Below, piece by piece: positions 1-59,741 of a DNA stretch of 64,000 nt; the stretch's first letter is position 1; the number at the start of each line of letters is the position of its first letter. The stretch covers positions 801 to 64,800 of the forward strand of contig JAFSOZ010000005.1 of the NCBI GenBank assembly GCA_017443175.1, in the 5' to 3' direction. The stretch is from Bacteroidales bacterium (GTDB taxonomy: Bacteria; Bacteroidota; Bacteroidia; Bacteroidales; WCHB1-69). Position numbers and translations under genes: made by a program. The notes below the pieces were generated by a model, which did not search any database, was not told the DNA's origin, and was given only the letters and a program-made list of their open reading frames with translations.

Positions 1-277
1 CGCCCGTTGAAATGGTGGCGACGGCACAGATTGCGTATGCGATGCATCGGGCTTGAATGAGTAGTCGTGGGATGAAAAAGAGATAGTGGCTGTACAATAG
101 CGCGAGAACAATGACTGCGGCCAGTCTTTCCTTGTACGGGATCCAGTGAAGCACAGGGCGCATGCCCGATGTCTTGGGGAAAATGCAGATGAGCAAGCAG
201 CAAAAGAGGATGTGAGGAAGCCAACATCTTCCAAAATGCAGGATTTTATGCCCAAGATAGGCCGCGGTTTTGTCCAT
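1..277 (-). CDS. 5' part (runs off window edge) of membrane protein paralogous to the LytTR regulator at 625-1494
   Basis: Hand translation from ATG 277 is open to the edge: MDKTAAYLGHKILHFGRCWLPHILFCCLLICIFPKTSGMRPVLHWIPYKERLAAVIVLALLYSHYLFFIPRLL...; aligns with HLVFCAIVIAVF..RPV..LYKE..IIVL of the neighbour; TATTTTTG promoter upstream. Confidence 0.75.
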   Translation of the reverse strand, partial: MDKTAAYLGHKILHFGRCWLPHILFCCLLICIFPKTSGMRPVLHWIPYKERLAAVIVLALLYSHYLFFIPRLLIQARCIAYAICAVATISTG

Positions 278-307
278 GTTTTAGCAGTGAAGGGAGTTAT
301 TTCAATG

Positions 308-315
308 CAAAAATA
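308..315 (-). promoter_or_regulatory. Bacteroidetes -7 promoter element (TATTTTTG)
   Basis: Matches TAnnTTTG about 30 nt upstream of ATG 277. Confidence 0.55.
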
Positions 316-381
316 AAAAAATTCAAGAAAAAATCAAGGGAATTTAATATTTCTAATGCTTTACAAGTGGAGCGCGACACC

Positions 382-436
382 TTTACCCTCTTTACCTCCT
401 TCACCCCATGTCCCTCATACACCCCTTTCACCCCAT
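382..436. repeat. 9-bp tandem repeat array (consensus ~TTYACCCCA)
   Basis: tttaccctc/tttacctcc/ttcacccca/tgtccctca/tacacccct/ttcacccca; contains stop codon of wHTH ORF. Confidence 0.85.
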
Positions 437-628
437 TTCCTCTTCCACCGCCTCGTAACCTCCAGTCTTGTTCGCCCCGACGTGCTCGATGAGGCCCTGC
501 TGTTTGAGGCGCGCGATTTGGCGGTATATGGTGTTATGTGTCACATTCATGCGTTTTGAGATGTCCTGTGCCGAGCAGCCAGGGTGTTTGGAGATATAGT
601 GGAATATCCTCTTTTGCTTTCTGCTCAA
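428..628 (-). CDS. Winged helix-turn-helix domain, probably the frameshifted C-terminus of the upstream LytTR protein
   Basis: LSRKQKRIFHYISKHPGCSAQDIS..NVTHNTIYRQIARLKQQGLIEHVGANKTGGY is a typical wHTH; TTG start overlaps upstream stop. Confidence 0.7.
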   Translation of the reverse strand: MSRKQKRIFHYISKHPGCSAQDISKRMNVTHNTIYRQIARLKQQGLIEHVGANKTGGYEAVEEEMG

Positions 629-1494: not shown

Positions 1495-1508
1495 TGCGAA
1501 TAAGGCAG

Positions 1509-1516
1509 CAAAAATA
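1509..1516 (-). promoter_or_regulatory. -7 promoter element for LytTR gene
   Basis: TATTTTTG on minus strand. Confidence 0.55.
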
Positions 1517-1526
1517 GGCGTTTTTG

Positions 1527-1702
1527 CCATTCGTCATGCAGTGAAGCATAAAAATATGACGAATGGTAAGAATGTGTAGGATTCTGGAAATGTATTACGA
1601 ATGTATTTTATTATAGTCCTGTGTTTTACATGTAAAAATGGTATGATTTATTGATACATTTTATACTTGATTTATTGTTGCAGAAATTGACCATTCGTCA
1701 TA
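1527..1702. promoter_or_regulatory. Three copies of CCATTCGTCAT/ATGACGAATGG (1527-1537, 1556-1566 inverted, 1691-1701); candidate operator sites
   Basis: Exact 11-bp matches; 1555-1567 and 1690-1702 form a perfect 13-bp inverted repeat. Confidence 0.6.
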
Positions 1703-1762
1703 ATTTTGGGCTTTTTGGGGCATGATACGGCAACGAGTATGTTTTTTTCAGTATTAGGACAG

Positions 1763-1770
1763 TATTTTTG
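1763..1770 (+). promoter_or_regulatory. -7 promoter element for lipoprotein gene
   Basis: TATTTTTG 18 nt upstream of ATG 1789. Confidence 0.55.
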
Positions 1771-1788
1771 TAACAAAAACACAACAAT

Positions 1789-2298
1789 ATGAAAAGAACA
1801 AGAATGATTATGGTGAAGCACGCCATCTGTATAGTGCTGTCATTGCCTTTGCTTGTGTTGGGATGCCAAAGGCCGGATGAAACGACCCCGAACGAGAAAA
1901 ACAGGTTGATATCCCTGAGTCCAGAAACTAAAACAGGATCAATGTTCTACATGGTCAGTGAGGTTGGTCACGACGGGTCCAAGTGTCCTGGATGTGTATT
2001 TGAAGCAGGTCAGTTGGTACATGTGGATTGCCAAGGTGACGGAAGTCAATGTAATATTACAGCCTCTGTCACCCTTCAGCAGGTGGGCTCGGCCATCACG
2101 GCCACGACCACGGACACGTTCGGGTTGACGAGCCTTGACTTTTTCTACATGCCGGCACGTTCTTTGAGCACGGGCGAGGGTGGGGACAATGCTTACCTCA
2201 ACATCCCGGCGCAGCTGGTTGAGCGCGACACCGCCACCCTTCAGTTCACCTTCACCGGGCTGTTTTACACCGGCAAACCGGCGTACAATAACTTTTAG
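1789..2298 (+). CDS. Hypothetical lipoprotein with HxxxxCxxC and HxxCx6C motifs
   Basis: Lipobox LVLGC; HDGSKCPGC and HVDCQGDGSQC. Confidence 0.75.
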   Translation: MKRTRMIMVKHAICIVLSLPLLVLGCQRPDETTPNEKNRLISLSPETKTGSMFYMVSEVGHDGSKCPGCVFEAGQLVHVDCQGDGSQCNITASVTLQQVGSAITATTTDTFGLTSLDFFYMPARSLSTGEGGDNAYLNIPAQLVERDTATLQFTFTGLFYTGKPAYNNF

Positions 2299-2403
2299 GC
2301 ATTCATTGGTGTTGACCGTTAGCTAATTAAGCCAACACTTGCCCACCAACAGCCTTATGAACAATTTAAAACCTTTTATATTCACAAAAAAACACTTACG
2401 CTT

Positions 2404-3201
2404 ATGAAAAAGAGAATTTTTCTTGCACAAATCCTGATTGTTTGCTGGGTATCCTTGATTGCACAGGACAAACCGACACCATGGTATACTAACGGCAATA
2501 TTTTCCCGGAAAATATTGTTCCCGTTATGGGTTCCATAACCAATAATCCATTTGCATTGATAACAAACAATACGTTGCGAATGTATGTGGACACTAACGG
2601 CAATATTGGCTTTAACACACTTTCTCCCAAGCAGATGCTTCATGTCGTGGATGGCAACATATTATTGTCTCACACATCCCGCGCACAGGGTTCTCTTAAC
2701 GGATCTATACTATTCGGTGCCGAGACCACTCCGACGTGTCCTTATGGGGTCTGGGGTATAGAATACGTGAACAATGAGAACGAAGGATACGGTTTAAATT
2801 TCTGGAAGACATGGAACTGCAGCACGGGTTTCAACCATGCTCTGTTCCTGTCCGACAGCGGCAATGTGGGGATCGGGACAAAAAATCCTCAAGCAAAACT
2901 TTCGGTGAATGGTAATATTTGCGCAAAAGAAATACGGGTTTCCCTTAATGGCACTCCTTGCTGGCCTGATTATGTGTTTGAAGAGGGGTATTCATTAACC
3001 TCCTTACAAGATTTGCAAAAATATATCAAGGAGAACAGACACTTGCCTGATGTTCCTTCGGCTGAGGAAATAAGTGACTCAGGAGTGAATTTGGGTGAAA
3101 TGAACACACTTCTTCTTAAGAAGATTGAAGAGTTAACTCTTTATATCATTAATTTGGAAGAACGTATCTGTATAATGGAGGAACAAGGAGGTTCTCGATG
3201 A
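2404..3201 (+). CDS. Secreted tail-fibre/intramolecular-chaperone-like protein (Bacteroidota GNVGIGT...WPDYVF family)
   Basis: Signal peptide; GNIGFNT and GNVGIGTKNPQAKLSVNG repeats; WPDYVF..HLPDVPSA..LLKKIEELTLY coiled-coil end. Confidence 0.75.
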   Translation: MKKRIFLAQILIVCWVSLIAQDKPTPWYTNGNIFPENIVPVMGSITNNPFALITNNTLRMYVDTNGNIGFNTLSPKQMLHVVDGNILLSHTSRAQGSLNGSILFGAETTPTCPYGVWGIEYVNNENEGYGLNFWKTWNCSTGFNHALFLSDSGNVGIGTKNPQAKLSVNGNICAKEIRVSLNGTPCWPDYVFEEGYSLTSLQDLQKYIKENRHLPDVPSAEEISDSGVNLGEMNTLLLKKIEELTLYIINLEERICIMEEQGGSR

Positions 3202-4667
3202 AGGCAATAGTTCACTTTATTGTTTGTTTTTTTACATTTTGTCAAGTTCTTGCACAGCAAACTCCATTCTGTGGAAGTTGGCAAAAGATATTGATGGTTA
3301 CCGATAATTGGGATTGCAATGACTATGAACACGGATTGTGGACATTAGTGTTTGAAGATAATTTTGATGGTAATACCATAAACACCTCGAATTGGTTCAC
3401 GTGTCCAGATGGCTGGCATAGAGACCATGGCGATGAATTGCAATATTACAAAGATGAAAACATTATATTATCTGATGGTATTTTGCATTTGACCGCAAAG
3501 CATGAGCCGGGGTATGATACTGTATACTACTTTGATTCTTTAGGCATGCATCCGCAAGAAAAGTTTTTTGAATATACATCAGGTTGGATTCAAACCAAAG
3601 CGCAATTCCAACACGGTTTGTTTGAGATAAGATGTAAAATTCCAAGCGGACAAGGTTTTTGGCCAGCATTTTGGTTTTATGGTAATGAAGGTGAAATAGA
3701 TGTTTTTGAATTTAACGGTAGTTATCCAAATAGACCTTATATGACTATTCATAATTGGCTGCAGAACGGAAACCATGAACAATGTTCTACTTCTCAATCA
3801 AGCAACACTAATTTTTCTTCTGATTATCATACGTTCTCTCTGGAATGGGATGAGTTCAAATTGTTATATCGTATAGATGGTAATATTGTCAATGTTTTTT
3901 ATAGGTATCTCAATTCGCTTGGCGTTGGTATGCCCTATTGCGAGTCTTTTCCAACAGGTTTATATCTCAAAAGCCCGTTTCTTCCTCAAAACGCCCAATC
4001 ATTAAGATTGAACTTGGCCATATCCCCGGAAGGGGGAGGTGTTGGAAATGCGCATGCCCCGAATAGTCAGACAGTTTTTCCTTCTTCATTTGATATTGAT
4101 TATGTACGAATATATAAAAAAAACAATCCTAATAGCACTATTCAAATATGCGATTTCCAAAACATTGAACCAAATGTGCTGACAGCTGATACCATAATAT
4201 TTTCCAACGGTTGTGAGACAAATATTACAACAAATAAAGCAGCTATAGCCAAAGCCAACAAGGAGATTATCTTAAAATCCGGATTTCATGCAGAGTCTGG
4301 TTCAACATTCCATGCTTTCATAAGCAATCCAACAAATGCAGCTACAACGCAGACAACGCCAATTTACGATAATAACACAGAGGATTATATGGAACAAAAA
4401 AAATACCTTCAAAAAAAACATAGGGAGCCATCAGTTTTGCTATATCCATCTCCAAATAATGGAAACTTTCAGTTGAATATAGAGGTGTTTGCAGAAGGAG
4501 AAGATGTTGACTTGGAAATAAGAGACATCTATGGAAAAACCATATATTTGCAAAGAATTTCAGGAAGCATTGTTCCCATAAGTGTTGATTGCCCTTCCGG
4601 CCAATATTTTGCGATACTGAAATGCGGAAGAAACACTGTTGTTGAGAAATTTGTTGTAATCAAATAA
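3198..4667 (+). CDS. Glycoside hydrolase family 16 with T9SS C-terminal sorting domain
   Basis: WTLVFEDNFDG, YTSG, WPAFW and catalytic EIDVFE motifs; LYPSPNNG..G.Y..KFVVIK CTD. Confidence 0.9.
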   Translation: MKAIVHFIVCFFTFCQVLAQQTPFCGSWQKILMVTDNWDCNDYEHGLWTLVFEDNFDGNTINTSNWFTCPDGWHRDHGDELQYYKDENIILSDGILHLTAKHEPGYDTVYYFDSLGMHPQEKFFEYTSGWIQTKAQFQHGLFEIRCKIPSGQGFWPAFWFYGNEGEIDVFEFNGSYPNRPYMTIHNWLQNGNHEQCSTSQSSNTNFSSDYHTFSLEWDEFKLLYRIDGNIVNVFYRYLNSLGVGMPYCESFPTGLYLKSPFLPQNAQSLRLNLAISPEGGGVGNAHAPNSQTVFPSSFDIDYVRIYKKNNPNSTIQICDFQNIEPNVLTADTIIFSNGCETNITTNKAAIAKANKEIILKSGFHAESGSTFHAFISNPTNAATTQTTPIYDNNTEDYMEQKKYLQKKHREPSVLLYPSPNNGNFQLNIEVFAEGEDVDLEIRDIYGKTIYLQRISGSIVPISVDCPSGQYFAILKCGRNTVVEKFVVIK

Positions 4668-4677
4668 ATCATTAAAT

Positions 4678-5346
4678 ATGAAACGATATGTTATTGTGAT
4701 GGTATTAGCAGGCATGGTGTTTTCCTGTATGGCGCAGCATGGCAATGACACATCCCGCAGAGTAGTAGTGCGCCCTTTAATTGAAGTTTTTGTTGGATCG
4801 CACGGTACGTTTTTCCCGGACGGTGTCAGCCAGAAAATGCCCTTTTCGGCGGGAGTGCTTGCAGGTGCGTCTTTTCTGGAAAAGAAGGGATTTCTGACAT
4901 TTAATACAGGATTTGTCGTATATAACGCCCATTTCAAGTGGATGGAAGAGAGTTTATTCCGTATCTTGTGTGCGCATCTGCCAGTTCTGATTGGCTATGA
5001 TTATCCTATAGGGGACAAAATGTCTATTGATGCATCGGCCGGTGTTATGTTCACCCGTATTTTGAAATATGCCCGCACCAATCCGATTGAAGAAGATTCA
5101 CAGTGGCCATACCCATACCCGCCAACACATTCGGGTGGTTGGATACACAACATGGATGAATATTGGAGCCAGTGTTGCGCTTTACATTTCCTTTTCACCA
5201 TGGGCTTTAACTATTGGTTCCATCCCAGGTTTGCCATACAGGTGGCCCCTTATTTCAGGTGTTGGATTCCGAGCTGGAATGTTGACTTCAGCGAGTCCAT
5301 TTTCAGCCCCACCTTGGGGTGCAAGGTGGGTGTTCTGTTTAGATAA
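4678..5346 (+). CDS. Outer-membrane beta-barrel protein
   Basis: Signal peptide, alternating beta-strand pattern, HLPVLIGY, C-terminal LGCKVGVLF. Confidence 0.65.
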   Translation: MKRYVIVMVLAGMVFSCMAQHGNDTSRRVVVRPLIEVFVGSHGTFFPDGVSQKMPFSAGVLAGASFLEKKGFLTFNTGFVVYNAHFKWMEESLFRILCAHLPVLIGYDYPIGDKMSIDASAGVMFTRILKYARTNPIEEDSQWPYPYPPTHSGGWIHNMDEYWSQCCALHFLFTMGFNYWFHPRFAIQVAPYFRCWIPSWNVDFSESIFSPTLGCKVGVLFR

Positions 5347-5368
5347 ACGGAATGGATCAGGAGACACC

Positions 5369-5547
5369 ATGCGCGTGGAAATGTCGACATGTTCGGGAGG
5401 ATCGTTCCCGTAGAGACGCAAAATTTTGCGTCTCTACCGTCCCCGACAACCACGGTCACCACCTCCGACATCCCCTCGGGCCTGTACGTTCTGCGCGTCA
5501 CCATGACCGACGGCACCGTGCGAACCACGAAAATCGTAAAACGATGA
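5369..5547 (+). pseudogene. Orphan T9SS C-terminal domain fragment with in-frame REP-like palindrome
   Basis: MRVE [frameshift] VDMFGRIVPVETQNFASLPSPTTTVTTSDIPSGLYVLRVTMTDGTVRTTKIVKR*; no cargo domain upstream. Confidence 0.75.
5410..5437. repeat. REP-like perfect palindrome GTAGAGACGCAAAATTTTGCGTCTCTAC
   Basis: 28-bp perfect palindrome; same arms as 6976-7003. Confidence 0.85.
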
Positions 5548-5560
5548 ACGATTATAGAAG

Positions 5561-5710
5561 GGTCTCCAGTCTTCAGTCTATAGTCTCCAGTCTTCAGTCT
5601 CCAGTCTCCGGTCTTTATTCTAATTCCCAACTCCCAACCCCCAATTCACCCCATGCACCAACTTCACCCCTTTTACCCCATTCACCCCATGTACCTCATG
5701 CCCCCTCATA
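5561..5710. repeat. Composite array: 7-bp AGTCTCC repeats, 7-bp AAYTCCC repeats, then 9-bp TTYACCCCA repeats
   Basis: Seen directly; the nonamer part contains the ubiE stop codon. Confidence 0.85.
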
Positions 5711-6975: not shown

Positions 6976-7003
6976 GTAGAGACGCACAGCCGTGCGTCTC
7001 TAC
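6976..7003. repeat. REP-like palindrome GTAGAGACGCACAGCCGTGCGTCTCTAC
   Basis: 12-bp arms, 4-nt loop, intergenic. Confidence 0.85.
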
Positions 7004-20492: not shown

Positions 20493-21821
20493 ATGAAACA
20501 AAGGATATTGATAGCGTGTTACTGCCTCTTGGTCTCCTCCTTGTTCGCCCAAAATGATGGCAGTCAGAACGCTACAGGAAAAACGCAATTTTCGTTAGAA
20601 GATTGTATCAATTATGCAGAAGAAAACAATTATTCATTGCAAACCGCTGGGTTGAACGTCACTTCTTCCGAAATCAGTTTGAAACAGGCCAAAGAAAACA
20701 TTGCCCCTACCATTTCCGCTTCCGCTTCACAGGGCTTGGGCACCAACCATTATCAGAAATCGGTGTCCTGGAACGGCAACTATGGCATCAGTGCAGGCAT
20801 GACACTGTTCAATGGACTTAGCAACTACAATTCCATTAAACAGAGCAAATTGCAGGTAGAGCAGTCGAATCTGGAATTGGAGCAGAGTAAAAACAACATT
20901 CGTGTTGGCATTATCCAGGCCTTTTTGAATATCATGATGAATGAGGACTTGTTGGAATATCAGCAGGAAGTCTTGAAAAGCAGCCAGGAGCAGATGGAAC
21001 AAGGTGAGCAACAATTCAAGGTGGGCCAGATTCTGGAGAGCGACTACAAGATGCTGCAAGCGCAATACACTTCCGACCGTTTCAGCATTGAAAACACTAA
21101 AATCAACATCCAGAACAACTACCTCACCCTCAAGAATCTATTAGCGATAGATCCTGCCAGGGAAATCCGCATTGTCCGTCCTGACAGTGCGACGCTGTTC
21201 CGCAGTCTGGAGATTCCGGGATTGCAGGCGATGATGGAAAAATCCATCAACTACCTGCCGGAGCTGAAGATCAGTCAGAACGACGTTACCAATGCGCAGT
21301 ACAATGTGAAGTTGCAAAAAGCCAACTACTATCCGAGTCTTTCGCTCAACGCGGGCATCAGCACGGGTTACAACAGCAGCAATCTGACAAACAACCCGGG
21401 TTGGGGCACGCAGCTTTGGCATGGTTTGGGTGAGAATGTGGGCCTGAATCTCAATATCCCCATCTATCAACGGAGCTCGGTGCGTCGCAACGTGCAGCAG
21501 GCGGAGTTGCGGGTGCAGCAGGCCGAGCTGAGCCAGAAGGAGACAGAGTATCAGGTGGGTCGCGAACTGCAGCAATACTACCTTGATGTGCTTTCTGCGC
21601 AGAATGATTATATGACGGCGGAAGCTAAAAAAGATGCGTACGAGGCCAACTACAACGCCTACAGTTTCAAATTCAAATATGGCGCTGTGACCGCTGTGGA
21701 TCTGATACAGCAACAGACCAATTATCTGAACCAATTGAACAATTACATGCAGGCCAAATACACATTCGTTTTGAAGCGTAAAATTCTGGACGTGATGATG
21801 GGCGAACCGGTGAGGTTGTAA
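20493..21821 (+). CDS. TolC family outer-membrane efflux protein
   Basis: SLEDCINYA, TLFNG, YYPSLSL, LNIPIY. Confidence 0.92.
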   Translation: MKQRILIACYCLLVSSLFAQNDGSQNATGKTQFSLEDCINYAEENNYSLQTAGLNVTSSEISLKQAKENIAPTISASASQGLGTNHYQKSVSWNGNYGISAGMTLFNGLSNYNSIKQSKLQVEQSNLELEQSKNNIRVGIIQAFLNIMMNEDLLEYQQEVLKSSQEQMEQGEQQFKVGQILESDYKMLQAQYTSDRFSIENTKINIQNNYLTLKNLLAIDPAREIRIVRPDSATLFRSLEIPGLQAMMEKSINYLPELKISQNDVTNAQYNVKLQKANYYPSLSLNAGISTGYNSSNLTNNPGWGTQLWHGLGENVGLNLNIPIYQRSSVRRNVQQAELRVQQAELSQKETEYQVGRELQQYYLDVLSAQNDYMTAEAKKDAYEANYNAYSFKFKYGAVTAVDLIQQQTNYLNQLNNYMQAKYTFVLKRKILDVMMGEPVRL

Positions 21822-21897
21822 GGGTGAATGGGGTGCATGAGGTACAAGAGGTGAATGGGGTACATGAGGTGAATGGGGTGAAAATGGGAATAGGAAA
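21822..21897. repeat. 9-bp tandem repeat array (TGGGGTRAA orientation)
   Basis: tggggtgca/tgaggtaca/agaggtgaa/tggggtaca/tgaggtgaa/tggggtgaa directly after tolC stop. Confidence 0.85.
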
Positions 21898-27253: not shown

Positions 27254-27361
27254 GGTTCAGGGAACAGGGTACAGTAAGTTTTGTTACCCCATGTACCTCA
27301 TTTACCTCATTTACCCCATGCACCCCATGCACCCCATTCACCCCTTTTACCTCATGCACCT
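27242..27361. repeat. 7-bp (AGGGWWC) array overlapping pgk stop, followed by 9-bp TTYACCYCA array
   Basis: agggaat agggttc agggaac agggtac; tgtacctca tttacctca tttacccca tgcacccca tgcacccca ttcacccct tttacctca. Confidence 0.85.
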
Positions 27362-32097: not shown

Positions 32098-32168
32098 CAA
32101 TTCAAAGTTCAAAGTTTAAAGTTCAAAGTTCAAAAAACTGAACTTTGAATTTTGAATTCTGAATATTG
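32098..32168. repeat. Inverted pair of 7-bp arrays (AAAGTTC)n..(GAACTTT-like)n forming a hairpin
   Basis: ttcaaagttca-aaaaac-tgaactttgaa core with periodic extension. Confidence 0.8.
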
Positions 32169-32170
32169 CA

Positions 32171-33841
32171 TTACTTATTGTGCTTGCCAACAAGCCGATA
32201 GGTCTTCATGCCGCCGATGAGGTTATAGACTTCTTCAAATCCCGATTGCATGAGGATGCGGGCGGCTACATAGCCGCGCAAGCCCACTTCGCAGAACACC
32301 ACTGTCTTCTTGTCGGGTTGGATATCTTCCAGAAATTCGCGAAGTTCATCCACAGGATAATTCTCTGCCCCTTCGATGGTGCCAACTTTGAATTCCTGGA
32401 TCTCGCGCACATCGATGAGGTTGATGTCCTCTTGTTTGTCCAGAATCTCGTCCAGTTCAGCTGCTTGGATAGGATTCATCAGATGGGAGAGGATGTTCTC
32501 GGCCACCATGCCGGCGAACATCACAGGGCTTTTGGCGGAGCCGTAGGGTGGTGCGTAGGCGTGTTCGCTGTTCACCAGGTCGAAAATGGTGCCCTGGTGC
32601 TTGAGGAGCAGCGAGATCACGTCGATCTGTTTATCCACATTCTGCGAGCCCACCGCTTGTGCGCCTAAGATGCGCCCGGATTCAGGGCAGAAGTTGAGCT
32701 TGAGGTGGATGGGTTGGCCGCCTGGGTAGTAGGTGGCGTGCGGTGCGGGGTGCGTGATGACGGTTTGGTATGCGATGCCCGCTTTTTGCAGGGCAGCCTC
32801 CGAGAGGCCGGTGCTGGCCGCTGTCAGCTCAAAGATTTTGGCGATGGCCGTAGCCACGGAGCCCTGATATTGCACAGATTGGGGATAGACCATGTTCATG
32901 GCTGCTGTGCGCGCCTGCAGGTTGGCGGGTCCGGCTAAGAAGTTGCAGTATGGTTTGCCCGTCACGGGATGCGGAAATTCTATGGCGTCGCCCACCGCGA
33001 AGATGCACTCGTCGGAGGTTTGCAGGTACTCGTTTACCCAGATGCCGCCGGCCTCGCCGATTTTGAGACCGCAGGCTTGCGCCAATGCGATGTTGGGGCG
33101 CACGCCGATGCTCAGAATGGCGATGTCACAGGGCAGTTCGGTGTGGTCTTCCAGGACGACCGAAAGCTTTCCGTCTTTTTCCTGGAATGCGCTCAGGCCG
33201 TTTTGCGTGATGACGCGCACACCCTTGTCTTGCAGATGTTGCTGCACAATGGCGGCCATGGGCCAATCCAGCGGTGTGAGCACGTGTGTGGCTTTCTCCA
33301 CCACGGTCACAGCATAGCCGATTTTGCACAGGTTTTCCGCCATCTCCAATCCGATGAATCCGCCGCCGATGATGACAGCTGTGGCGTTGTCGTGCATCTG
33401 GTCGATGGCTTGCATCTTGATGCGGTCGCAGTCGGCTACGTTGCGCAAGGTGAAGATACCAGGCAGATCAATGCCTTGAATGGCGGGTTTGATAGGCTCT
33501 GCACCTGGCGAGAGCAGCAGGATGTCGTAATCCTCTTCATACTCTTTGCCGTTGCGCAGGTTTTTCACGGAAACGGTCTTGCGGTCGCGGTTGATGGCAG
33601 TCACCTCGTTCAGTGTGCGCACGTCAACGTCGTAGCGGTTGCCGAACGAAACCGGGGTTTGCAGGAAGAGTTTTTTCCGGTCCTCAATGGTGTTGCCGAT
33701 GTAATAGGGAAGTCCGCAGTTGGCGTAAGAGATATGTTCGCCTTTCTCAAACAGCACGATTTCAGCGTCTTCGTTTATTCTTTTCAGTCTGGCTGCCGCC
33801 GAAGCGCCTCCGGCTACGCCACCGATAATCACGTATTTCAT
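32171..33841 (-). CDS. CoA-disulfide reductase-like FAD oxidoreductase with C-terminal rhodanese
   Basis: GGVAGG, SYANCGLP, GGGFIG, YAPPY, DVRE..FCEVGLRG. Confidence 0.93.
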   Translation of the reverse strand: MKYVIIGGVAGGASAAARLKRINEDAEIVLFEKGEHISYANCGLPYYIGNTIEDRKKLFLQTPVSFGNRYDVDVRTLNEVTAINRDRKTVSVKNLRNGKEYEEDYDILLLSPGAEPIKPAIQGIDLPGIFTLRNVADCDRIKMQAIDQMHDNATAVIIGGGFIGLEMAENLCKIGYAVTVVEKATHVLTPLDWPMAAIVQQHLQDKGVRVITQNGLSAFQEKDGKLSVVLEDHTELPCDIAILSIGVRPNIALAQACGLKIGEAGGIWVNEYLQTSDECIFAVGDAIEFPHPVTGKPYCNFLAGPANLQARTAAMNMVYPQSVQYQGSVATAIAKIFELTAASTGLSEAALQKAGIAYQTVITHPAPHATYYPGGQPIHLKLNFCPESGRILGAQAVGSQNVDKQIDVISLLLKHQGTIFDLVNSEHAYAPPYGSAKSPVMFAGMVAENILSHLMNPIQAAELDEILDKQEDINLIDVREIQEFKVGTIEGAENYPVDELREFLEDIQPDKKTVVFCEVGLRGYVAARILMQSGFEEVYNLIGGMKTYRLVGKHNK

Positions 33842-33908
33842 AAGCGAGGGTTTTAAAGGTGGGCAAAGATACTGTTTTTTATTATTTTTGTACGCAAAAT
33901 TTGATGTT

Positions 33909-34732: not shown

Positions 34733-35827
34733 ATGGCCACAAAAAAAGCTACAGAAAAAAAAGTTGCTGAACCGGCAGAAGAACCCAAAACCAAGAAAGC
34801 CACGACCAAAAAAGCCGCTGTAAAAGAGGCTCCAGTCCAAGAAGAACCCGTTGCGGAAGAGGCTGCTGAAAAGAAACCCGCCAAGAAAGCCGCTGCCAAG
34901 AAGACTACGGAAAAGGAGAGTGTAAAGAAAGAGCCTGCCAAGAAGTCAACACCCAAAGCGAAAAAAGCGGAAGCTGTAGCTGAAGAGCCTGTTGTGGCTG
35001 CAATGGAAGAGGAAGTCACCGTGGAGAAAAATTCCGACGGTGTGGTGGAAGTGAAGAAACACGAGGATACCACCATCACTTCAGAAGAGATCACCATTGA
35101 GCAAAAGCTGCTCTCTTTATACAATCTCCAGCAAATCTGCACCAAGATTGACGATATCCGCATGATTCGCGGCGAGTTGCCGGAAGAGATTCGCGACAAC
35201 GAGGACGAATGCGAAGGCAAACGCACGCGTATTGCCAAATTCAAAGACGAGATTGAGAACCTCCGTTTGAAAATCTCATCCGAGAACACCAAGAAGGAAG
35301 AGTCCATGGCTGCCATCAAGAAATATGAGGAGCAGCAGAACAACGTACGTAACAACCGCGAGTATGAATCCTTGAGCAAGGAGATTGAATACCAGAAGCT
35401 GGAAATCCAGGTTTCGGAGAAGCACAAAGTGAAATACGAAGCTGAGATTGAAGAGAAAGAGGCGCTTATCGCTGAGACTCAGGAAAAGCTTGGCGAGTTG
35501 GAAGAGGTGTTGAAGCAGAAAAAAGCCGAGTTGGAAGTGATTGTGGCTGACACGGAAAAAGAGGAAGAAGAACTCTTGGCACAGGCTGAGGTTCTGAAAG
35601 CCAAAGTTGACCAGCGCTTGCTCACCGCTTTCGAGAGAATCCGCAAGAACGCCCACAATGGTTTGGCCATCGTGAAGATTGAGCGCGACGCTTGCGGTGG
35701 TTGTTTCAGCAAGATTCCTCCTCAACGCCAGCTGGATATTGCCCTGCACAAAAAGATCATCGTGTGCGAGGCCTGCGGTCGTATCTTCATTGACGACAAG
35801 CTTGTCCACAAACAGGACGAAGCATAG
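34733..35827 (+). CDS. Coiled-coil C4 zinc-ribbon protein (DUF164-type) with Lys/Ala/Glu-rich N-terminal extension
   Basis: RGELP, NNREY, ACGGC..CEACGR; usual neighbour of Nif3; promoter TACCTTTG 34649-34656. Confidence 0.88.
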   Translation: MATKKATEKKVAEPAEEPKTKKATTKKAAVKEAPVQEEPVAEEAAEKKPAKKAAAKKTTEKESVKKEPAKKSTPKAKKAEAVAEEPVVAAMEEEVTVEKNSDGVVEVKKHEDTTITSEEITIEQKLLSLYNLQQICTKIDDIRMIRGELPEEIRDNEDECEGKRTRIAKFKDEIENLRLKISSENTKKEESMAAIKKYEEQQNNVRNNREYESLSKEIEYQKLEIQVSEKHKVKYEAEIEEKEALIAETQEKLGELEEVLKQKKAELEVIVADTEKEEEELLAQAEVLKAKVDQRLLTAFERIRKNAHNGLAIVKIERDACGGCFSKIPPQRQLDIALHKKIIVCEACGRIFIDDKLVHKQDEA

Positions 35828-35856
35828 CAAGATACAGAGAACAGGATACTGTTTAC

Positions 35857-35886
35857 AAAAGAGACGCACAGCCGTGCGTCTCTTTT
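35857..35886. terminator. Terminator hairpin built from the REP-like palindrome
   Basis: AAAAGAGACGCAC-AGCC-GTGCGTCTCTTTT; 24-bp core identical to 6978-7001. Confidence 0.85.
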
Positions 35887-36035
35887 TGGTATATGGAGAG
35901 AGGAAAATCATTGTAGATATACTTGATGTGTCAGGGAAAAGGCAGATCAGGATGCAACAAAAAATGATGTTCGGAAGCCATTTTCTTCCAAAACGGAGTA
36001 TTTATTCATCCCATATCCGTCATTATATGCCCCAT
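35887..36035 (-). pseudogene. 5' relic of membrane LytTR-type regulator
   Basis: ILRFGRKWLPNIIFCCILICLFPDTS vs ILHFGRCWLPHILFCCLLICIFPKTS of gene 1-277 (19/26 identical); broken start, truncated at palindrome. Confidence 0.8.
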
Positions 36036-36136
36036 ATTTCAATTGAAAACGAGTTTTTTCAATGCAAAAATCGAGAAAAAAAATATGAAAAAATCAATTT
36101 TTTTTTCGTGGTTTATTGGTCTGAGAATTAGTGGTT

Positions 36137-36178
36137 TGGGACGAAACTGGGACGAACTTGGGACGAAAGTGGGACGAA
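36137..36178 (+). repeat. Four TGGGACGAA copies at exact 11-bp period
   Basis: Starts at 36137, 36148, 36159, 36170. Confidence 0.9.
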
Positions 36179-36288
36179 GGAGGGGTGAAATTATGTGGGT
36201 CTCGGATGTTTCATGATGATGATGTGTTAAAAACAGGTATTTTAGCAAGCGACAAACCCTTTTTTATTCACATTTTTATACAACATTT

Positions 36289-36376
36289 ATGACAAGGATT
36301 CTTTTCCTTGCACAAGTCCTGATCATGTGCAGAGCATCCTTGCTTGCACAGGACAAATCGCCCCCTGCCCATGGTA
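36289..36376 (+). pseudogene. 5' relic (signal peptide) of tail-fibre-like gene family of 2404-3201
   Basis: FLAQVLIMCRASLLAQDK vs FLAQILIVCWVSLIAQDK (13/18); upstream leaders also similar; similarity ends at CCATGGTA. Confidence 0.8.
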
Positions 36377-36399
36377 AACGCCTGGCGGGGCGTCTCTAC
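36374..36399. repeat. Degenerate REP-like palindrome GTAAACGCC-TGGCGG-GGCGTCTCTAC
   Basis: Intact GCGTCTCTAC arm; supplies the TAG stop of the methyltransferase on the minus strand. Confidence 0.65.
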
Positions 36400-37118
36400 A
36401 ATAAATACGGTTTGGTAACGCCCCGGTATTCCTCCGTATATTCGTTTTGTTCGTTGCGGATGACCAGATGATGTTCTGTGCAAGAGACATCCGCGCGGCT
36501 GTATTCCTGTATCACGCGATGGACCGGTTTCTTGGCGGTGGGTTGGATAAACACCCGTTTGCGGCAGTGCAAAAGACCTTCCGTCAAAGCGTGGAACTGC
36601 GCACCCTCCACGGGTGGCAGAATCAGGGCGAAGCGGCCTCCTTCTTTCAAAAGTTTTAACACACTTTGCAACAACTCCTCGAAGGGGAGCTGGTGGTCAC
36701 GGTGCTTGCTCCGGAGCCTCTTTTCCTGCGCCGGCTTCAAATCATGGCCGTAAAAGGGCGGGTTGGTGACGATGAGGTCAAATTGTACGGGATGGTCGGC
36801 GGCGGCCATGTCCTGCACGCGCCCCTGCACAAAGCGGAACGTATCAGCGGGGAGCAGGGGATAGGCAGCGGCGTTTTGCCGCGCCTCCAAAACCGAAGCT
36901 TCGTCAGGGTCGAGACCATACACCAGCGGTTGGGCTTGCTTGTGCGCCAGCTGCTGGGCCAGGCAAAAGGCTATCACACCGCACCCGCAGCCGATGTCCA
37001 ATACCGATTGCGCATTTTCCACATCGGTGAGTGCTGCCAATAATACCGCATCGGTACCTATCTTCAAGGTACTTTTGTCATGTTGAAGTGAAAATTTCTT
37101 AAAATGAAACGAGGCCAT
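36396..37118 (-). CDS. tRNA1(Val) A37 N6-methyltransferase (TrmN6/YfiC family)
   Basis: FHFKKF, KIGTDAVLL, LDIGCGCG, TNPPF. Confidence 0.9.
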   Translation of the reverse strand: MASFHFKKFSLQHDKSTLKIGTDAVLLAALTDVENAQSVLDIGCGCGVIAFCLAQQLAHKQAQPLVYGLDPDEASVLEARQNAAAYPLLPADTFRFVQGRVQDMAAADHPVQFDLIVTNPPFYGHDLKPAQEKRLRSKHRDHQLPFEELLQSVLKLLKEGGRFALILPPVEGAQFHALTEGLLHCRKRVFIQPTAKKPVHRVIQEYSRADVSCTEHHLVIRNEQNEYTEEYRGVTKPYLL

Positions 37119-38101
37119 TAGCAATAGACTTCCAGAACTTTGGATTTGCGTGCTGGCAACAGCTGCACCTCCTCCATCTCGGCAGGGATGAGCACCACCT
37201 CGCCCGTTTCCAACCGCTCGCGCTCGTCACCGTAGGCCAACAGAATCTGCCCGTCCAGACACATATAGATGACGAAAGAGTCTATCTCCACAAAGGATTT
37301 GTTCAGCGGCTGGTCGAATTCCAGCAGGCTGGTGTTGAAATATTGGGAGCGCACCAAGCGCACCGTCTTGTTGAGTTGCGGCTGGTACTCTACTTTGAAA
37401 TTGTCGGTCTGGTGGTCAAAGTCGATAGCCTCCAGCGCCTCTTGCACGTGCAGCTCGCGGGAGTTGCCCTCGTCATCCAAACGGTTCCAGTCGAATACGC
37501 GGAAGGTGATATCCGATGGTTGCTGGATTTCGGCCAGCAGCACGCCCTTGCCAATAGCGTGCACCGTGCCGGCGGGAATCATGAACGTGTCGCCGGGTTG
37601 CACAGGATAGAACTGCAGCACCTCTTCCACGGTACCGTTGGCGATGGCCTCCTCAAACTGGGCTTTGCTGACAGTCTTGTTGAAGCCCACATAGAGGCCG
37701 CTCCCTGGCTCCGAAGCAATCACGTGCCACATCTCCGTCTTGCCGCTTTGCCCATATTTGCGTTGCGCCAATTCATCGTCAGGATGCACTTGTACGGAGA
37801 GGTTGTCCTGCGCATCGATGAACTTGATCAGCAGCGGGAAGCCCAACCCGTATTTCTCGTAGTTTTTCTCACCCACCAGTTCTGTCATGTAGATTTCCAG
37901 CAGCTCGTTGAGGTTGTTCTCCGCCAAAAAGCCGTTGGTGATCATGGACTCGTCGCCCACGAGCCCCGACACCTCCCAGCTTTCGCCACAGCAGTTGGCG
38001 GGACTGATCTCTTTGTATAACATGGTTTTCAGCCGGGTGCCGCCCCAGATCTTGTCTTTCAAAATGGGCTCGAATTTCAAGGGATATAAAGAAGTCTCCA
38101 T
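37118..38101 (-). CDS. manA: Class I mannose-6-phosphate isomerase
   Basis: IWGG, GESWE, LSVQVHP, GKTEMW, GTVHAI, EIQQ. Confidence 0.93.
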   Translation of the reverse strand: METSLYPLKFEPILKDKIWGGTRLKTMLYKEISPANCCGESWEVSGLVGDESMITNGFLAENNLNELLEIYMTELVGEKNYEKYGLGFPLLIKFIDAQDNLSVQVHPDDELAQRKYGQSGKTEMWHVIASEPGSGLYVGFNKTVSKAQFEEAIANGTVEEVLQFYPVQPGDTFMIPAGTVHAIGKGVLLAEIQQPSDITFRVFDWNRLDDEGNSRELHVQEALEAIDFDHQTDNFKVEYQPQLNKTVRLVRSQYFNTSLLEFDQPLNKSFVEIDSFVIYMCLDGQILLAYGDERERLETGEVVLIPAEMEEVQLLPARKSKVLEVYC

Positions 38102-58748: not shown

Positions 58749-59630
58749 TTAGAATCTGGGATGGAATTGTGCTATGTTGCTGCGGATGTAATCTTGGTCA
58801 AGATGCGTGTAAATCTCAGTAGTGGTGATACTTTCATGGCCTAACATTTGTTGTACGGCGCGAAGGTCGGCGCCGCCCTCCACCAAGTGTGTGGCGAAAG
58901 AGTGTCTAAAAGTGTGCGGACTGATAGATTTTTGGATGCCAGCTTCGGCGGCCCATTTTTTCACTAGCATAAACACCATTTCGCGGCTCAGATGACGGCC
59001 TCGTCGGTTCAGGAAAAGGTAGTCCTCCTCCCCTTTTTTCACTTTCACCTTCTTGCGGGAGCCTTCCACATACAGCGTGATCATTTTGCGGGCCATGCTG
59101 CCGATGGGCACGTACCGCTCTTTGCTGCCCTTGCCTAACACTTTGATGAAGCCTTCGTCGAAAAAGAGGTGGGAGAGTTTCAGGGACACGGCCTCGCTCA
59201 CGCGCAGGCCGCAGCCGTACATCACCTCCACGAGGGCGCGGTTGCGATGTCCTTCGGGCGTGCTGAGGTCAATGACAGCGATGATGGCCTCAATCTCGGG
59301 CACCGACAGCACATCGGGAAGATGCATGCCTATCTTCGGTGCGTTCAACAGGGCGGTGGGGTCGTCCTGTAGGGTGCCATCGTAAACCAGAAACCGGTAA
59401 AAAGCCTTGATGCCGGACACGATACGCGCCTGCGAACGTGTGGCAATACCCTTTTCAACCAAACTGCGCAGAAATTGTTGGATATCTTCCAGTTTGGCGG
59501 TTTCCAATGCCTTATGCTCCAAAAAATCCTCCAAAAGCGTCACATCGTGCAGGTAAGCCTCCACCGTCTTGGAAGAGAGGCTCTTCTCAAGCAGAAGATA
59601 TTGTTTGAATTGGGCGATGAGGGGAGACAT
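58749..59630 (-). CDS. xerD: Site-specific tyrosine recombinase XerD
   Basis: GLRVSE, GKGSKER, SPHTFRHSFATH, LGH, TEIYTH. Confidence 0.9.
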   Translation of the reverse strand: MSPLIAQFKQYLLLEKSLSSKTVEAYLHDVTLLEDFLEHKALETAKLEDIQQFLRSLVEKGIATRSQARIVSGIKAFYRFLVYDGTLQDDPTALLNAPKIGMHLPDVLSVPEIEAIIAVIDLSTPEGHRNRALVEVMYGCGLRVSEAVSLKLSHLFFDEGFIKVLGKGSKERYVPIGSMARKMITLYVEGSRKKVKVKKGEEDYLFLNRRGRHLSREMVFMLVKKWAAEAGIQKSISPHTFRHSFATHLVEGGADLRAVQQMLGHESITTTEIYTHLDQDYIRSNIAQFHPRF

Positions 59631-59741
59631 GAAAGGGGTACAAGGGGTAAATGGGGTGAAAGGGGTAAATTGGGTAAATTGGGTAAATGGGGTGAAAGGG
59701 GTATTTAAATTCTCTACTCTCTCAACTCTAAACTCTAAACT
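59631..59741. repeat. 9-bp array (WGGGGTRAA) followed by 7-bp AACTCTM array
   Basis: aggggtaca aggggtaaa tggggtgaa aggggtaaa ttgggtaaa ttgggtaaa tggggtgaa; abuts xerD ATG. Confidence 0.85.

Follow-up and report, generated by a model that had tools for sequence, protein, structure and literature searches.

Roughly 0.5 kb of DNA separates two housekeeping genes, coding for a zinc-ribbon (Zn-ribbon) protein and a methyltransferase, in the stretch of 64,000 nucleotides analyzed here (the window, to which all plain coordinates refer). The window is part of a 1.37-Mb Bacteroidales MAG (G000) with a completeness of 59%. The spacer, hereafter called the relic, carries the 5′ ends of two divergent genes, regA′ and tf′, and is bracketed by palindromes. 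Its features, together with those of the intact genes used as references, are as follows.

34733..35827, plus strand: left neighbour, gene for a C4-type Zn-ribbon protein (Pfam PF02591, E = 1.2e-10); last gene of block A
35857..35886, no strand: left palindrome AAAAGAGACGCACAGCCGTGCGTCTCTTTTT, a stem of the GAGACGC family with the look of a two-way intrinsic terminator
35887..35924, minus strand: decayed stretch from the hairpin to the clear regA′ homology, collinear with the relic of the nearest species (G047)
35925..36035, minus strand: regA′ fragment with the first ~37 codons of a paralog of the LytTR membrane regulator, truncated and carrying a +1 frameshift
36036..36136, minus strand: 5′ leader and promoter region of regA′, common to the region upstream of regA and both G047 loci
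36137..36180, plus strand: four tandem 11-bp repeats TGGGACGAANN, read from the sequence
36225..36288, plus strand: conserved block GGTATTTTAGCAAGCGACAAACCCTTTTTTATTCACA with the promoter and leader of the gene on this strand, near-invariant in two relics and the functional G047:C18 locus
36289..36376, plus strand: tf′ fragment, ATG and signal-peptide region of a 'tail-fibre-like' paralog, cut at CCATGGTA
36374..36399, minus strand: right palindrome remnant GTAGAGACGCCCCGCCAGGCGTTTAC, a weak hairpin whose relic-side arm is 2 bases short
36396..37124, minus strand: right neighbour, TrmN-like class I SAM methyltransferase gene (NCBIfam NF047853, 153.9 bits, below the cut-off of 350; several Pfam methyltransferase domains); first gene of block B
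2..340, minus strand: 5′ end and promoter of intact regA, the reference for regA′; the gene leaves the window and is complete in contig C4 at 283-1077
2368..3201, plus strand: intact 'tail-fibre-like' gene (265 aa) and its leader, the reference for tf′; the name is that of the earlier note only, and profile searches (Pfam, NCBIfam) matched no family

Two truncated gene ends and the region between them

A blastn search with window 35800-36450 as the query and the entire 1,368,884-base G000 assembly as the target matched 35925-36097 to 168-337, i.e. the 5′ end and upstream region of regA (71.7% over 180 columns, E = 1.95e-14), and 36254-36360 to 2368-2475, i.e. the upstream region and 5′ end of the gene at 2404 (75% over 108, E = 8.3e-13). 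The homologous copy on the plus strand as a whole spans 36254-36376. These matches bear out the description in the earlier note, according to which the relic consists of a divergent regulatory region and the 5′ ends of two genes only. The translations confirm that ILRFGRKWLPNIIFCCILICLFPDTS has 19 of 26 residues in common with regA, and FLAQVLIMCRASLLAQDK 13 of 18 with the gene at 2404, and the upstream motif ttcaatgcaaaaat .. aaaaatcaa that regA′ was said to share with regA is present in the alignment. The full-length paralog, regA, encodes a 265-aa protein with a LytTR domain (PF04397, E = 8e-8). The link from contig C5 to C4, where regA is complete, is an 88-bp end overlap only, which C11 shares.

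The regA′ frame is shifted by +1 between the ATG and the conserved part, and everything past about codon 37-50 is lost. The frame of tf′ is broken by a 5-base insertion before CCATGG, with a loss after about codon 29. Displaying similarity to intact genes, truncation and a broken frame, regA′ and tf′ are both pseudogene fragments. The regA′ DNA is also 78% identical to a full-length regA locus at G047:C18. The missing 3′ parts of the two genes were not found in the 59% complete G000, and a tblastn search of this genome with six island proteins returned only more distant paralogs, on contigs C3 and C7. We lean towards the view that the stretch was once a complete locus in which the gene of a LytTR membrane regulator (regA′, minus strand) and a signal-peptide gene (tf′, plus strand) flanked a common regulatory region.

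When 55 genomes of the genus were searched at the DNA level, two, G000 and G047, contained the relic, each as a single copy, and a 20-mer scan of metagenome contigs returned one same-species contig and two unrelated chance matches. The G047 relic (G047:C10:102061-102481) is 77% identical over window 35941-36365, which is close to the identity of fourfold-degenerate sites between the two genomes (70%; six orthologous gene pairs, 1039 sites).

An assembly chimera, which the earlier note had named as a possible refutation, was rejected: Logan contigs from three further studies span both junctions, as does a 92.6-kb metagenome contig that is 99.4% identical over 35700-36600. The Logan contigs cover 35400-36900 with 9 differences (X6 record 16), 35693-36822 with 3 (X5 record 12) and 35761-36900 with 5 (X9 record 30). 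The structure of the relic is thus real in several independent samples. Seven of the 9 differences of X6 record 16 fall inside the ~510-bp relic, i.e. they are denser there than in the flanking genes. Separately, two runs contain loose ends of contigs that belong to other organisms; they suggest that a relative carries a similar hairpin downstream of the Zn-ribbon gene and is devoid of the relic.

The four 11-bp repeats are a candidate operator of the LytTR regulator. The G047 relic and the functional regA-lipoprotein locus at G047:C18 both match the first ~26 bases of this element exactly, and the AAACC-TTTT-TATTCACA portion of the plus-strand promoter block is also found upstream of the gene at 2404. 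The stretches ~36120-36160 and 36225-36273 are almost 100% identical in the two relics and the functional G047:C18 locus, whereas the remainder of the relic is ~65-75% identical and neutral sites ~70%. Such a pattern could indicate an orphan regulatory module, in which selection has retained the operator-like repeats and the promoter block, e.g. as a LytTR decoy or as an antisense source directed into the convergent neighbours. Contigs of an RNA library cover 35400-36028, 36068-36366 and 36375-36770, which would fit such a role but carries little weight owing to possible DNA carry-over; the ends of these contigs are no evidence of transcript ends.

We nevertheless consider a selected module very unlikely. 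The −7 box of the Bacteroidetes-type regA′ promoter (GATTTTTG at ~36064-36071) is off the consensus, which we take to be TAnnTTTG, in both relics; G056, which with G047 makes up the two closest species, is entirely without the relic; the within-species differences in X6 record 16 are concentrated in the relic; and the likeness of the two blocks could also be due to gene conversion by functional paralogs. The altered −7 box speaks equally against the shuffling of promoter modules that the earlier note envisaged, as do the targets of the relic promoters, both of which, in this genome, point towards convergent housekeeping genes, into their 3′ ends, and have no gene under their control. A scan for sigma-70-type promoters was set aside because it is ill-suited to Bacteroidetes promoters.

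The palindrome family at the ends of the relic

As had been proposed, the palindromes on either side of the relic belong to a family headed by GTAG. In the 1.37-Mb MAG the 10-mer GTAGAGACGC occurs 32 times at 21 sites (~2.6 occurrences expected), and each of the 21 sites begins a perfect or degenerate palindrome, so that the family has the copy number of a REP. Beyond ~35-45 bp, the flanks of its members are unrelated, the exception being one 171-bp pair that represents a T9SS domain. Hairpins with an AGAGACG-like arm lie, in 21 of 31 cases, no more than 33 nt past the stop codon of an ORF of at least 120 aa, and the family shares with GTAG REPs an extragenic position 3′ of ORFs. The tag itself is not unpaired, as in canonical copies GTAG pairs with CTAC at the opposite end. 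The palindrome GTAGAGACGCA-N6-TGCGTCTCTAC is found as an exact match in at least 125 genome stretches from many phyla (~0.03 expected by chance), with identical central hexamers recurring among the matches listed, and this recurrence points to recognition by a conserved protein.

The left palindrome has a G+C-rich stem flanked by A5 and T5 runs, lies 33 nt past the Zn-ribbon stop codon and folds with −20.4 kcal/mol (z −5.9) on one strand and −20.5 kcal/mol (z −6.5) on the other. By its sequence, it looks like a two-way intrinsic terminator, which a simple terminator scan omitted because the T run was counted into the stem. It is without any GTAG (AAAAGAGACGC). The G047 relic starts with the same stem, and a 22-base identical copy is present at 6979-7000; of the four family copies in the window, this one is at no breakpoint. 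Other hairpins made of an A run, a stem and a T run occupy the same place after the Zn-ribbon gene in 11 of 15 loci of relatives, as judged by eye.

The right palindrome can be assigned to the family by its start, GTAGAGACGC. With a folding energy of −9.9 kcal/mol (z −0.9) that was equalled by 36 of 200 shuffled sequences, it is a decayed copy. Its GTAG provides the TAG stop codon of the methyltransferase gene. A REP at this stop codon was found in 2 of the 30 loci examined; it is present in G064 and absent from G047 and G056.

The earlier note had both gene fragments end at these palindromes. This holds for tf′, where the common CCATGGTA leads directly into the palindrome arm, and for regA′ it holds in part. 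Clear regA homology ends at 35925, 39 bp before the hairpin, and it is a weak, ungapped, in-register similarity of 35887-35924 to regA codons 38-50 that reaches the hairpin. At its beginning, this decayed stretch reads TTTGGTATATGG, similar to the first bases of the G-rich decamer arrays found after such hairpins at other sites. The G047 relic is without 25 bases of the stretch and is collinear up to and through the left hairpin.

The mechanism put forward in the earlier note was REP-directed capture, in which a RAYT/HUH tyrosine transposase would act on the GTAG palindromes and capture or move the REP-bounded promoter cassette. The exact recurrence of the palindrome in many phyla with its repeated central hexamers, the presence of two single-copy Y1 transposase genes in G000, and the different places that the relic and its left REP occupy in two species all agree with such an activity. 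However, a GAGACGC-type palindrome on both sides was found at none of 11 Y1 loci (2 in G000 and 9 in four close relatives, examined with 1.5 kb on either side), and at two of these loci one related hairpin is located ~700 bp off, on one side. Instead, the Y1 genes sit in arrays of other, mostly local repeats, which in G000 are hairpin-bearing. The NCBIfam profiles classify the G000 proteins as IS200/IS605 TnpA (65 and 56 bits, cut-off 55), and the RAYT score of one of them is 21.7 bits (cut-off 80). Furthermore, the relic has the attributes neither of a two-REP unit nor of a multi-site mobile unit: it is single in each of the two genomes that have it, the G047 copy possesses the left REP only, the right REP of G000 is degenerate, and the site in G056 is a REP without the unit. 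As G000 is 59% complete, a cognate gene may be missing from the assembly. All the same, we regard capture by such an enzyme as extremely improbable.

Synteny breakpoints and the proposed joints

Block A (MenG..NIF3..Zn-ribbon; window 5768-35844, ~30 kb) is collinear with G047:C10:102646-135774 and G056:C55, and block B (window 36397 to at least 60000) with G047:C18:267485-243235 and G056:C14:5523-29196. The two blocks are not adjacent in either G047 or G056, and the relic is located exactly at their joint in G000. Breakpoint mapping against these two species covered 60 kb of the window, and the block comparison supports the identification of both relic ends as synteny breakpoints. Other breaks in the window, a 1.7-kb inversion (32156-33872) and indels near 25992 and 45141, are without such a palindrome.

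At the left joint, homology to the region downstream of the G047 and G056 Zn-ribbon genes stops at the hairpin; AGAG..CTCTTTTTGGT is common to the G000 hairpin and those of G047 and G056, and the inner stem is different. At the right joint, block B homology stops at the stop codon, which in G047 and G056 is a TAA with a different hairpin. Each end of the relic abuts the 3′-end hairpin of the neighbouring housekeeping gene.

Orthologous Zn-ribbon/methyltransferase junctions, which the earlier note had hoped to compare, were not found in the relatives, as none of their 15 Zn-ribbon loci has the neighbours seen in G000. Among 11 relatives, the conserved NIF3/Zn-ribbon pair is followed by at least six different genes, none of the 4 methyltransferase loci with gene content examined is followed by a Zn-ribbon gene, and no relic-like sequence is present past the methyltransferase stop codon in 29 loci of other genomes. 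The methyltransferase junction does vary among species by hairpin-bounded pieces: G047 has a 1.35-kb T9SS gene flanked on both sides by a 38-bp hairpin module, of which G056 has a single copy, and G064 has the REP described above.

The G047 relic, which has the same hairpin and the same regA truncation, is found at the opposite end of block A, flanked by the dipeptidase and MenG genes. Its tf′ copy, with ACG replacing ATG, is ~95 bp longer and reaches the MenG stop codon. The scar, together with this hairpin and its position at the regA′ truncation point, predates the split of G000 and G047 and goes back to their common ancestor. In G056, the order is dipeptidase, array-REP-array, then MenG, the REP being identical to that of G047 at 21 of 22 positions, and the relic is absent. 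On contig C13 of G000, the dipeptidase gene is separated from the genes found past the Zn-ribbon gene in G047 and differs from them in orientation.

On balance, we take the ~0.5-kb stretch to be what decay has left of a regulator gene and the gene divergent from it, situated at a hairpin-adjacent joint of two conserved blocks. We are moderately confident that it is an old pseudogene scar, the ends of which coincide with 3′-end hairpins that served as, or mark, rearrangement or deletion joints. These joints would have been formed by short-homology recombination or by hairpin-stimulated deletion at dispersed palindromes. On the left, the exchange may have taken place between the REP preceding the relic, which follows the dipeptidase gene in G047 and G056, and the terminator hairpin of the Zn-ribbon gene, in the form of a tandem duplication or an excised circle, either of which would account for the presence of the relic at one end of the 30-kb block in G000 and at the other end in G047. 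The right joint may have come from a deletion or exchange with its endpoint 5-6 bases into the outer arm of the REP overlapping the methyltransferase stop codon. Neither joint would require a transposase. The case for hairpin joints comprises one joint (two ends) and one neighbouring cassette, and the lack of a hybrid signature in the left hairpin is a counterpoint to it.

The same scar could also result from passive co-location, with inert hairpins and random endpoints that survive only outside housekeeping genes and their terminators. Because the hairpins are mostly found right after stop codons (the 21 of 31 given above), gene-sparing rearrangements tend to end beside one, and co-location alone shows no mechanism. 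The left hairpin is, moreover, at the place of the relatives' terminator hairpins, the other breaks in the window are without such a palindrome, and a single joint was examined. However, the right endpoint is inside the REP arm itself, within a few bases, and the left context switch is inside the hairpin or the common CTCTTTTTGGT, not elsewhere in the spacer. In addition, the neighbouring T9SS cassette is bracketed by the duplicated hairpin module, and the REP has stayed with the relic in two species whose upstream genes differ. Passive co-location is consequently possible, though doubtful in our view.

In its broadest form, the hairpin-joint reading would make the perfect palindrome GTAGAGACGCA-N6-TGCGTCTCTAC and the 3′ hairpins portable recombination joints of these rumen Bacteroidales. 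An exchange would have excised or duplicated the 30-kb block with the relic to give the permuted order, the same process would swap the cassettes at the methyltransferase junction, and the relic repeats and promoter block would be conserved via surviving LytTR regulators. We consider this extension unlikely.

The stretch is an ordinary genome-rearrangement scar and represents no new mode of promoter movement. The finding mainly documents an old pseudogene scar and removes the reading of transposase-driven promoter-module shuffling, and the relic remains useful as a marker when rearrangements in this species group are reconstructed. If the hairpins truly are joints, they would help explain the poorly kept gene order in the genus and would show how secreted-protein cassettes come and go beside housekeeping genes.

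Relation to known repeats, regulators and pseudogene remnants

GTAG-tagged REPs are short dispersed palindromes, headed by GTAG, that mostly lie right after ORFs, where GTAG may give a TAG stop codon, and some copies are in frame within genes (Di Nocera, De Gregorio and Rocco 2013, PMC3733652). In this survey, GTAG repeats are reported for Proteobacteria, Cyanobacteria, Chloroflexi and the PVC group, CGTC repeats only are given for Bacteroidetes, and the tag of the described GTAG families is unpaired (PMC3733652). The G000 family is likewise headed by GTAG, positioned mostly 3′ of ORFs, able to supply a TAG stop codon and, in some copies, in frame with a gene. Unlike the tags in those descriptions, however, its GTAG pairs with CTAC, which makes the whole 28-mer a perfect palindrome, and a REPtron with this palindrome was not found among the 11 Y1 loci. 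REPtrons are RAYT genes flanked by their own REPs, and the Y1 genes of G000 are also located inside hairpin-bearing repeat arrays. Their repeats, though, are other sequences, the GAGACGC family is not adjacent, and the proteins are TnpA by NCBIfam.

Enterobacterial REPs are said, in work of Shyamala, Schneider and Ames from 1990, to be join-points of chromosomal duplications and rearrangements. They, too, are short dispersed palindromes at gene 3′ ends and sites of unequal exchange, and a similar tandem duplication would yield a Zn-ribbon/hairpin/relic joint and a permuted gene order. By comparison, the event at the G000 locus is deduced from three species, it would have had no more than 22-28 bp of homology to use, and the two partner sites carry non-identical hairpins in the relatives examined.

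LytTR-domain regulators of the AgrA and AlgR class recognize direct repeats located in front of the operons to which they belong. The same domain is found in RegA and its paralogs, and the intergenic region has four phased 11-bp direct repeats, to which binding is putative; regA-type proteins differ from this class in having a membrane N-terminal part and no receiver domain.

With ordinary pseudogene remnants at breakpoints, the relic shares truncated and frameshifted 5′ ends, near-neutral divergence and the lack of a 3′ copy in the assembly. It departs from them in retaining a whole divergent regulatory region, two blocks of which are conserved far above the neutral level.

A dead gene pair at the joint

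The 568 bases that separate the stop codons of a zinc-ribbon gene and a convergent methyltransferase gene hold a genuine and old pseudogene scar, sited at a rearrangement joint that hairpins bound on both sides. The scar (the relic) is bracketed by two members of a GAGACGC-type, GTAG-headed palindrome family (REPs).

34733-35827, plus strand: C4-type zinc-ribbon gene
35857-35886: left palindrome, reading AAAAGAGACGCACAGCCGTGCGTCTCTTTTT
36374-36399: right palindrome, its minus strand reading GTAGAGACGCCCCGCCAGGCGTTTAC
36396-37124, minus strand: TrmN-like methyltransferase gene, convergent to the zinc-ribbon gene

A blastn search with window 35800-36450 against the whole assembly of the source genome (G000) returned two significant internal matches. 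The first, 35925-36097, aligns with window 168-337 (71.7% over 180 columns, E 2e-14), which comprises the 5′ end and upstream region of regA, the intact gene for a 265-aa membrane protein with a LytTR domain. The second, 36254-36360, aligns with window 2368-2475 (75% over 108 columns, E 8e-13); this target covers the leader and signal peptide of tf, a 265-aa gene at 2404 to which no Pfam or NCBIfam family was matched. The earlier note's observation of this relic is confirmed: translation of the fragments regA' (minus strand) and tf' (plus strand) gives the same residue counts, 19/26 and 13/18, and the alignment contains the upstream motif that regA' and regA have in common.

Both fragments are dead. 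The ATG of regA' lies at 36035 on the minus strand, where an extra base before the conserved ILRFGRKWLP brings about a stop after nine codons; the conserved frame is left without any start. In tf', five extra bases ahead of CCATGG throw the fragment out of frame with both the intact gene and the sister copy in a relative, G047. The 3′ parts of regA' and tf' were not found elsewhere in the assembled genome (14 contigs, 1.37 Mb, rated 59% complete) by tblastn with six island proteins.

An assembly chimera, named in the earlier note as a possible source of the joint, is ruled out. Both junctions are spanned by independently assembled contigs of three other studies, which show 3 to 9 differences each (metagenome runs X6, 35400-36900; X5, 35693-36822; X9, 35761-36900), and a 92.6-kb metagenome contig has the same neighbours and 99.4% identity across 35700-36600. 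The runs holding the stretch are gut metagenomes, bovine and sheep among them. Variation within the species is denser in the relic than in the genes on either side: of the differences in X6 record 16, 7/9 fall in the relic. Elsewhere in the assembly, the last 88 bases of contigs C5 and C11 equal the first 88 (the start of a repeated gene) of C4, the contig whose bases 801-64800 make up the window, and the 3′ ends of C3 and C4 share an identical 141 bases.

Synteny and the origin of the joint

Synteny mapping of 60 kb of the window against two relatives in the same genus, G047 and G056, resulted in three pieces.

1-5700: island, no collinear counterpart in G047 or G056
5768-35844: block A, MenG to the zinc-ribbon gene, equivalent to G047:C10:102646-135774 and G056:C55
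36397 to at least 60000: block B, equivalent to G047:C18:267485-243235 and G056:C14:5523-29196

The relic exactly fills the gap between blocks A and B, which in the relatives lie on separate contigs with other neighbours. Block A is collinear except for a 1.7-kb segment, 32156-33872, inverted in G000 relative to both relatives; the left edge of the inversion bears a simple-repeat inverted repeat (aaagttcaaag.. / ..ctttgaatttt) and no GAGACGC palindrome. Other loci of the island type, with an HTH gene, a LytTR membrane regulator and a lipoprotein, are found at G000 C3:6000-8300 and C7:92000-93100, and in the C3 locus a GTAGAGACGC hairpin followed by TTTTTTTGGTACATGAGG adjoins the HTH gene.

On the left, homology to the relatives stops at the hairpin. 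Other A-run/stem/T-run hairpins occupy this place in relatives; the hairpins of G000, G047 and G056 have AGAG..CTCTTTTTGGT in common and differ in the inner stem. The zinc-ribbon gene is followed by a T9SS gene in G047 and by the HTH gene of an island-like locus in G056. On the right, homology stops at the methyltransferase stop codon, after which the relatives carry orthologues of the 3′ end of G000 contig C5, preceded in G047 by a T9SS gene. A REP at this stop codon is present in G064 (L018, TTGTAGAGACACAATATTGCATCTCTAC..) and G000 and absent from G047 and G056 (L016 and L017, TTGTAACCACC...), though by methyltransferase amino acid identity to the closest genomes (G047 91%, G056 88%, G064 83%, G041 70%) G000 is nearer to G047 and G056 than to G064.

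Among 54 other genomes of the genus, only G047 contains DNA like the relic, in two places.

G047:C18:240172-240506: functional locus, full-length regA (266 aa, LytTR) divergent from a lipoprotein gene
G047:C10:102061-102481: another relic, 77% identity over window 35941-36365

Identity between the functional locus and the G000 relic is 78%, over the regA 5′ end and all of the intergenic sequence. The second relic opens, as in G000, with a GAGACGC hairpin and TTTGGT-TATGG. Its regA' is cut short in the same way, though in G047 it stays in frame and reads on into the hairpin. The spacer and the start of the plus-strand gene are also the same, except that the start codon is ACG and the fragment extends for ~95 bp more. 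The site of this second relic, with a dipeptidase gene on one side and MenG on the other, is the end of block A opposite to the one where the scar sits in G000. At this site G056 has an array-REP-array without a relic, its REP 21/22 identical to that of G047; in G000 another gene directly follows the dipeptidase gene (contig C13). In six orthologous gene pairs, G000 and G047 agree at 70% of 1039 fourfold-degenerate sites; the 77% identity of the relics therefore fits descent under little constraint from one scar in their common ancestor. This implies that the cut in regA' at the hairpin is an old event, common to G000 and G047, and that the scar's location is new in this species.

We infer two steps for the joint. 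On the left, an exchange between two direct-order hairpins, one the REP that precedes the relic and the other the terminator that follows the zinc-ribbon gene, would have moved the hairpin and relic to the opposite end of block A, either as a tandem duplication later trimmed or as an excised circle re-inserted. On the right, a separate deletion or exchange would have stopped 5-6 bases into the arm of the REP that overlaps the methyltransferase stop codon; on the relic side this REP has GTAAACGCC as its arm, not GTAGAGACGCC, and the GTA at the joint could derive from the methyltransferase gene's own CCATGGTA. The flanks of the dipeptidase and zinc-ribbon sites have been separated by further rearrangements. 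Loose contig ends from other organisms hint at a relative that has a similar hairpin behind the zinc-ribbon gene and lacks the relic. At the methyltransferase junction of G047, a 1.35-kb T9SS cassette lies between two direct copies of a 38-bp module, CCACC-ATTCCGCCGC-N3-GCGGCGGAAT-CCCCAACGTT, which contains the hairpin ATTCCGCCGC-N3-GCGGCGGAAT (L045 1460-2900); G056 has one module and no cassette (L046 5380-5550), and G000 has four copies after other genes.

The REP-bounded trimming proposed in the earlier note is plausible but unproven. A point against a special mechanism is passive co-location: these hairpins normally directly follow stop codons, so breaks that spare genes land beside them anyway. 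Two of the four family copies in the window lie at the relic, one (5412-5435) in a T9SS-domain pseudogene near the island edge and one (6979-7000) at no breakpoint, and the other breaks in the mapped window have no such palindrome.

The regulatory region

The regulatory region is modular. Four phased tandem 11-bp repeats TGGGACGAANN at 36137-36180, spaced by one helical turn, form a candidate operator of LytTR regulators and are kept in both G047 loci. Together with the leader GGTATTTTAGCAAGCGACAAACCC-TTTT-ATTCACA, they lie upstream of the G047:C18 lipoprotein gene and, in both relics, of the start of tf'. The two blocks have hardly changed across the three loci while the rest has drifted, which could reflect residual function or gene conversion. 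The shuffling of promoter modules suggested earlier is unsupported: in G000 the relic promoters drive no gene and run towards the 3′ ends of the convergent neighbours, and the −7 box of the regA' promoter deviates in both relics from TAnnTTTG, the consensus used for comparison.

Many intergenic spacers are filled by arrays of degenerate 9-10-bp units (ATGGGGTGAA / ATGGGGTACA or complement), as at window 367-440, 5620-5695, 21814-21885, 27284-27361 and 59630-59705. In relatives they occur at block edges: in G056 behind the zinc-ribbon gene and around the REP of the dipeptidase site, and in G041 behind the methyltransferase.

The palindrome family and Y1 transposases

The left palindrome starts 33 nt after the zinc-ribbon stop and has, whichever strand is folded, an energy of −20.4 kcal/mol (z −5.9); the right one, whose TAG is the methyltransferase stop codon, is weak as a hairpin (z −0.9). 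In the G000 assembly the 10-mer GTAGAGACGC occurs 32 times at 21 sites (~2.6 expected), every one the start of a palindrome, perfect or degenerate, with the structure GTAGAGACGCA-N6-TGCGTCTCTAC. Most hairpins with an AGAGACG-like arm (21/31) follow the stop of an ORF of 120 aa or longer by no more than 33 nt; a few sit in frame inside T9SS C-terminal domains. In such sorting domains the same 28-bp palindrome is read as VETQNFASL or VETHGRASL (window 5346-5547, palindrome 5412-5435; G000 C7:6896-6919; L045 ~1640-1670). The window copy is a frameshifted, 5′-truncated domain fragment that has 171 bp at 86.5% in common with the intact C7 gene.

The exact palindrome is by no means confined to this lineage. 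With one genome scanned per species, exact GTAGAGACGCA-N6-TGCGTCTCTAC occurs in at least 125 genome stretches (L076-L200) from many phyla, with Bacteroidota, Ignavibacteria, Chloroflexota, Planctomycetota, Acidobacteriota, Spirochaetes, Proteobacteria, candidate phyla and others among the matches listed. In these listed matches the centre is palindromic in 91/128 copies, and central hexamers recur (CGGCCG in 24/128, AAATTT in 20/128, ATGCAT in 16/128). So wide a spread suggests some conserved protein partner, which nothing here links to the relic.

REP-directed capture by a RAYT, the other route put forward in the earlier note, is unsupported. The search for a RAYT did find two Y1 (PF01797) genes in G000, of 153 and 173 aa, single-copy and IS200-like (C11:118700-120200 and C14:93000-94500; L013, L014), but their products score as IS200/IS605 TnpA (NCBIfam, 65 and 56 bits, cut-off 55), and against the RAYT model one of them reaches 21.7 bits (cut-off 80). 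The GAGACGC palindrome flanks the Y1 gene at none of 11 loci (two in G000, nine in four relatives); at two of the 11, a single related hairpin lies ~700 bp to one side.

Each G000 Y1 gene lies between arrays of ~120-140-bp repeat units with their own hairpins, mostly confined to these two loci. This layout is like that of REPtrons, but the repeats are other sequences than the GAGACGC palindrome. GTAG REPs are known to supply TAG stops, to follow ORFs and sometimes to sit inside genes (PMC3733652), and that survey names no GTAG repeats in Bacteroidetes. The palindromes described here share with those GTAG REPs the placement after ORFs and the supply of TAG stop codons.
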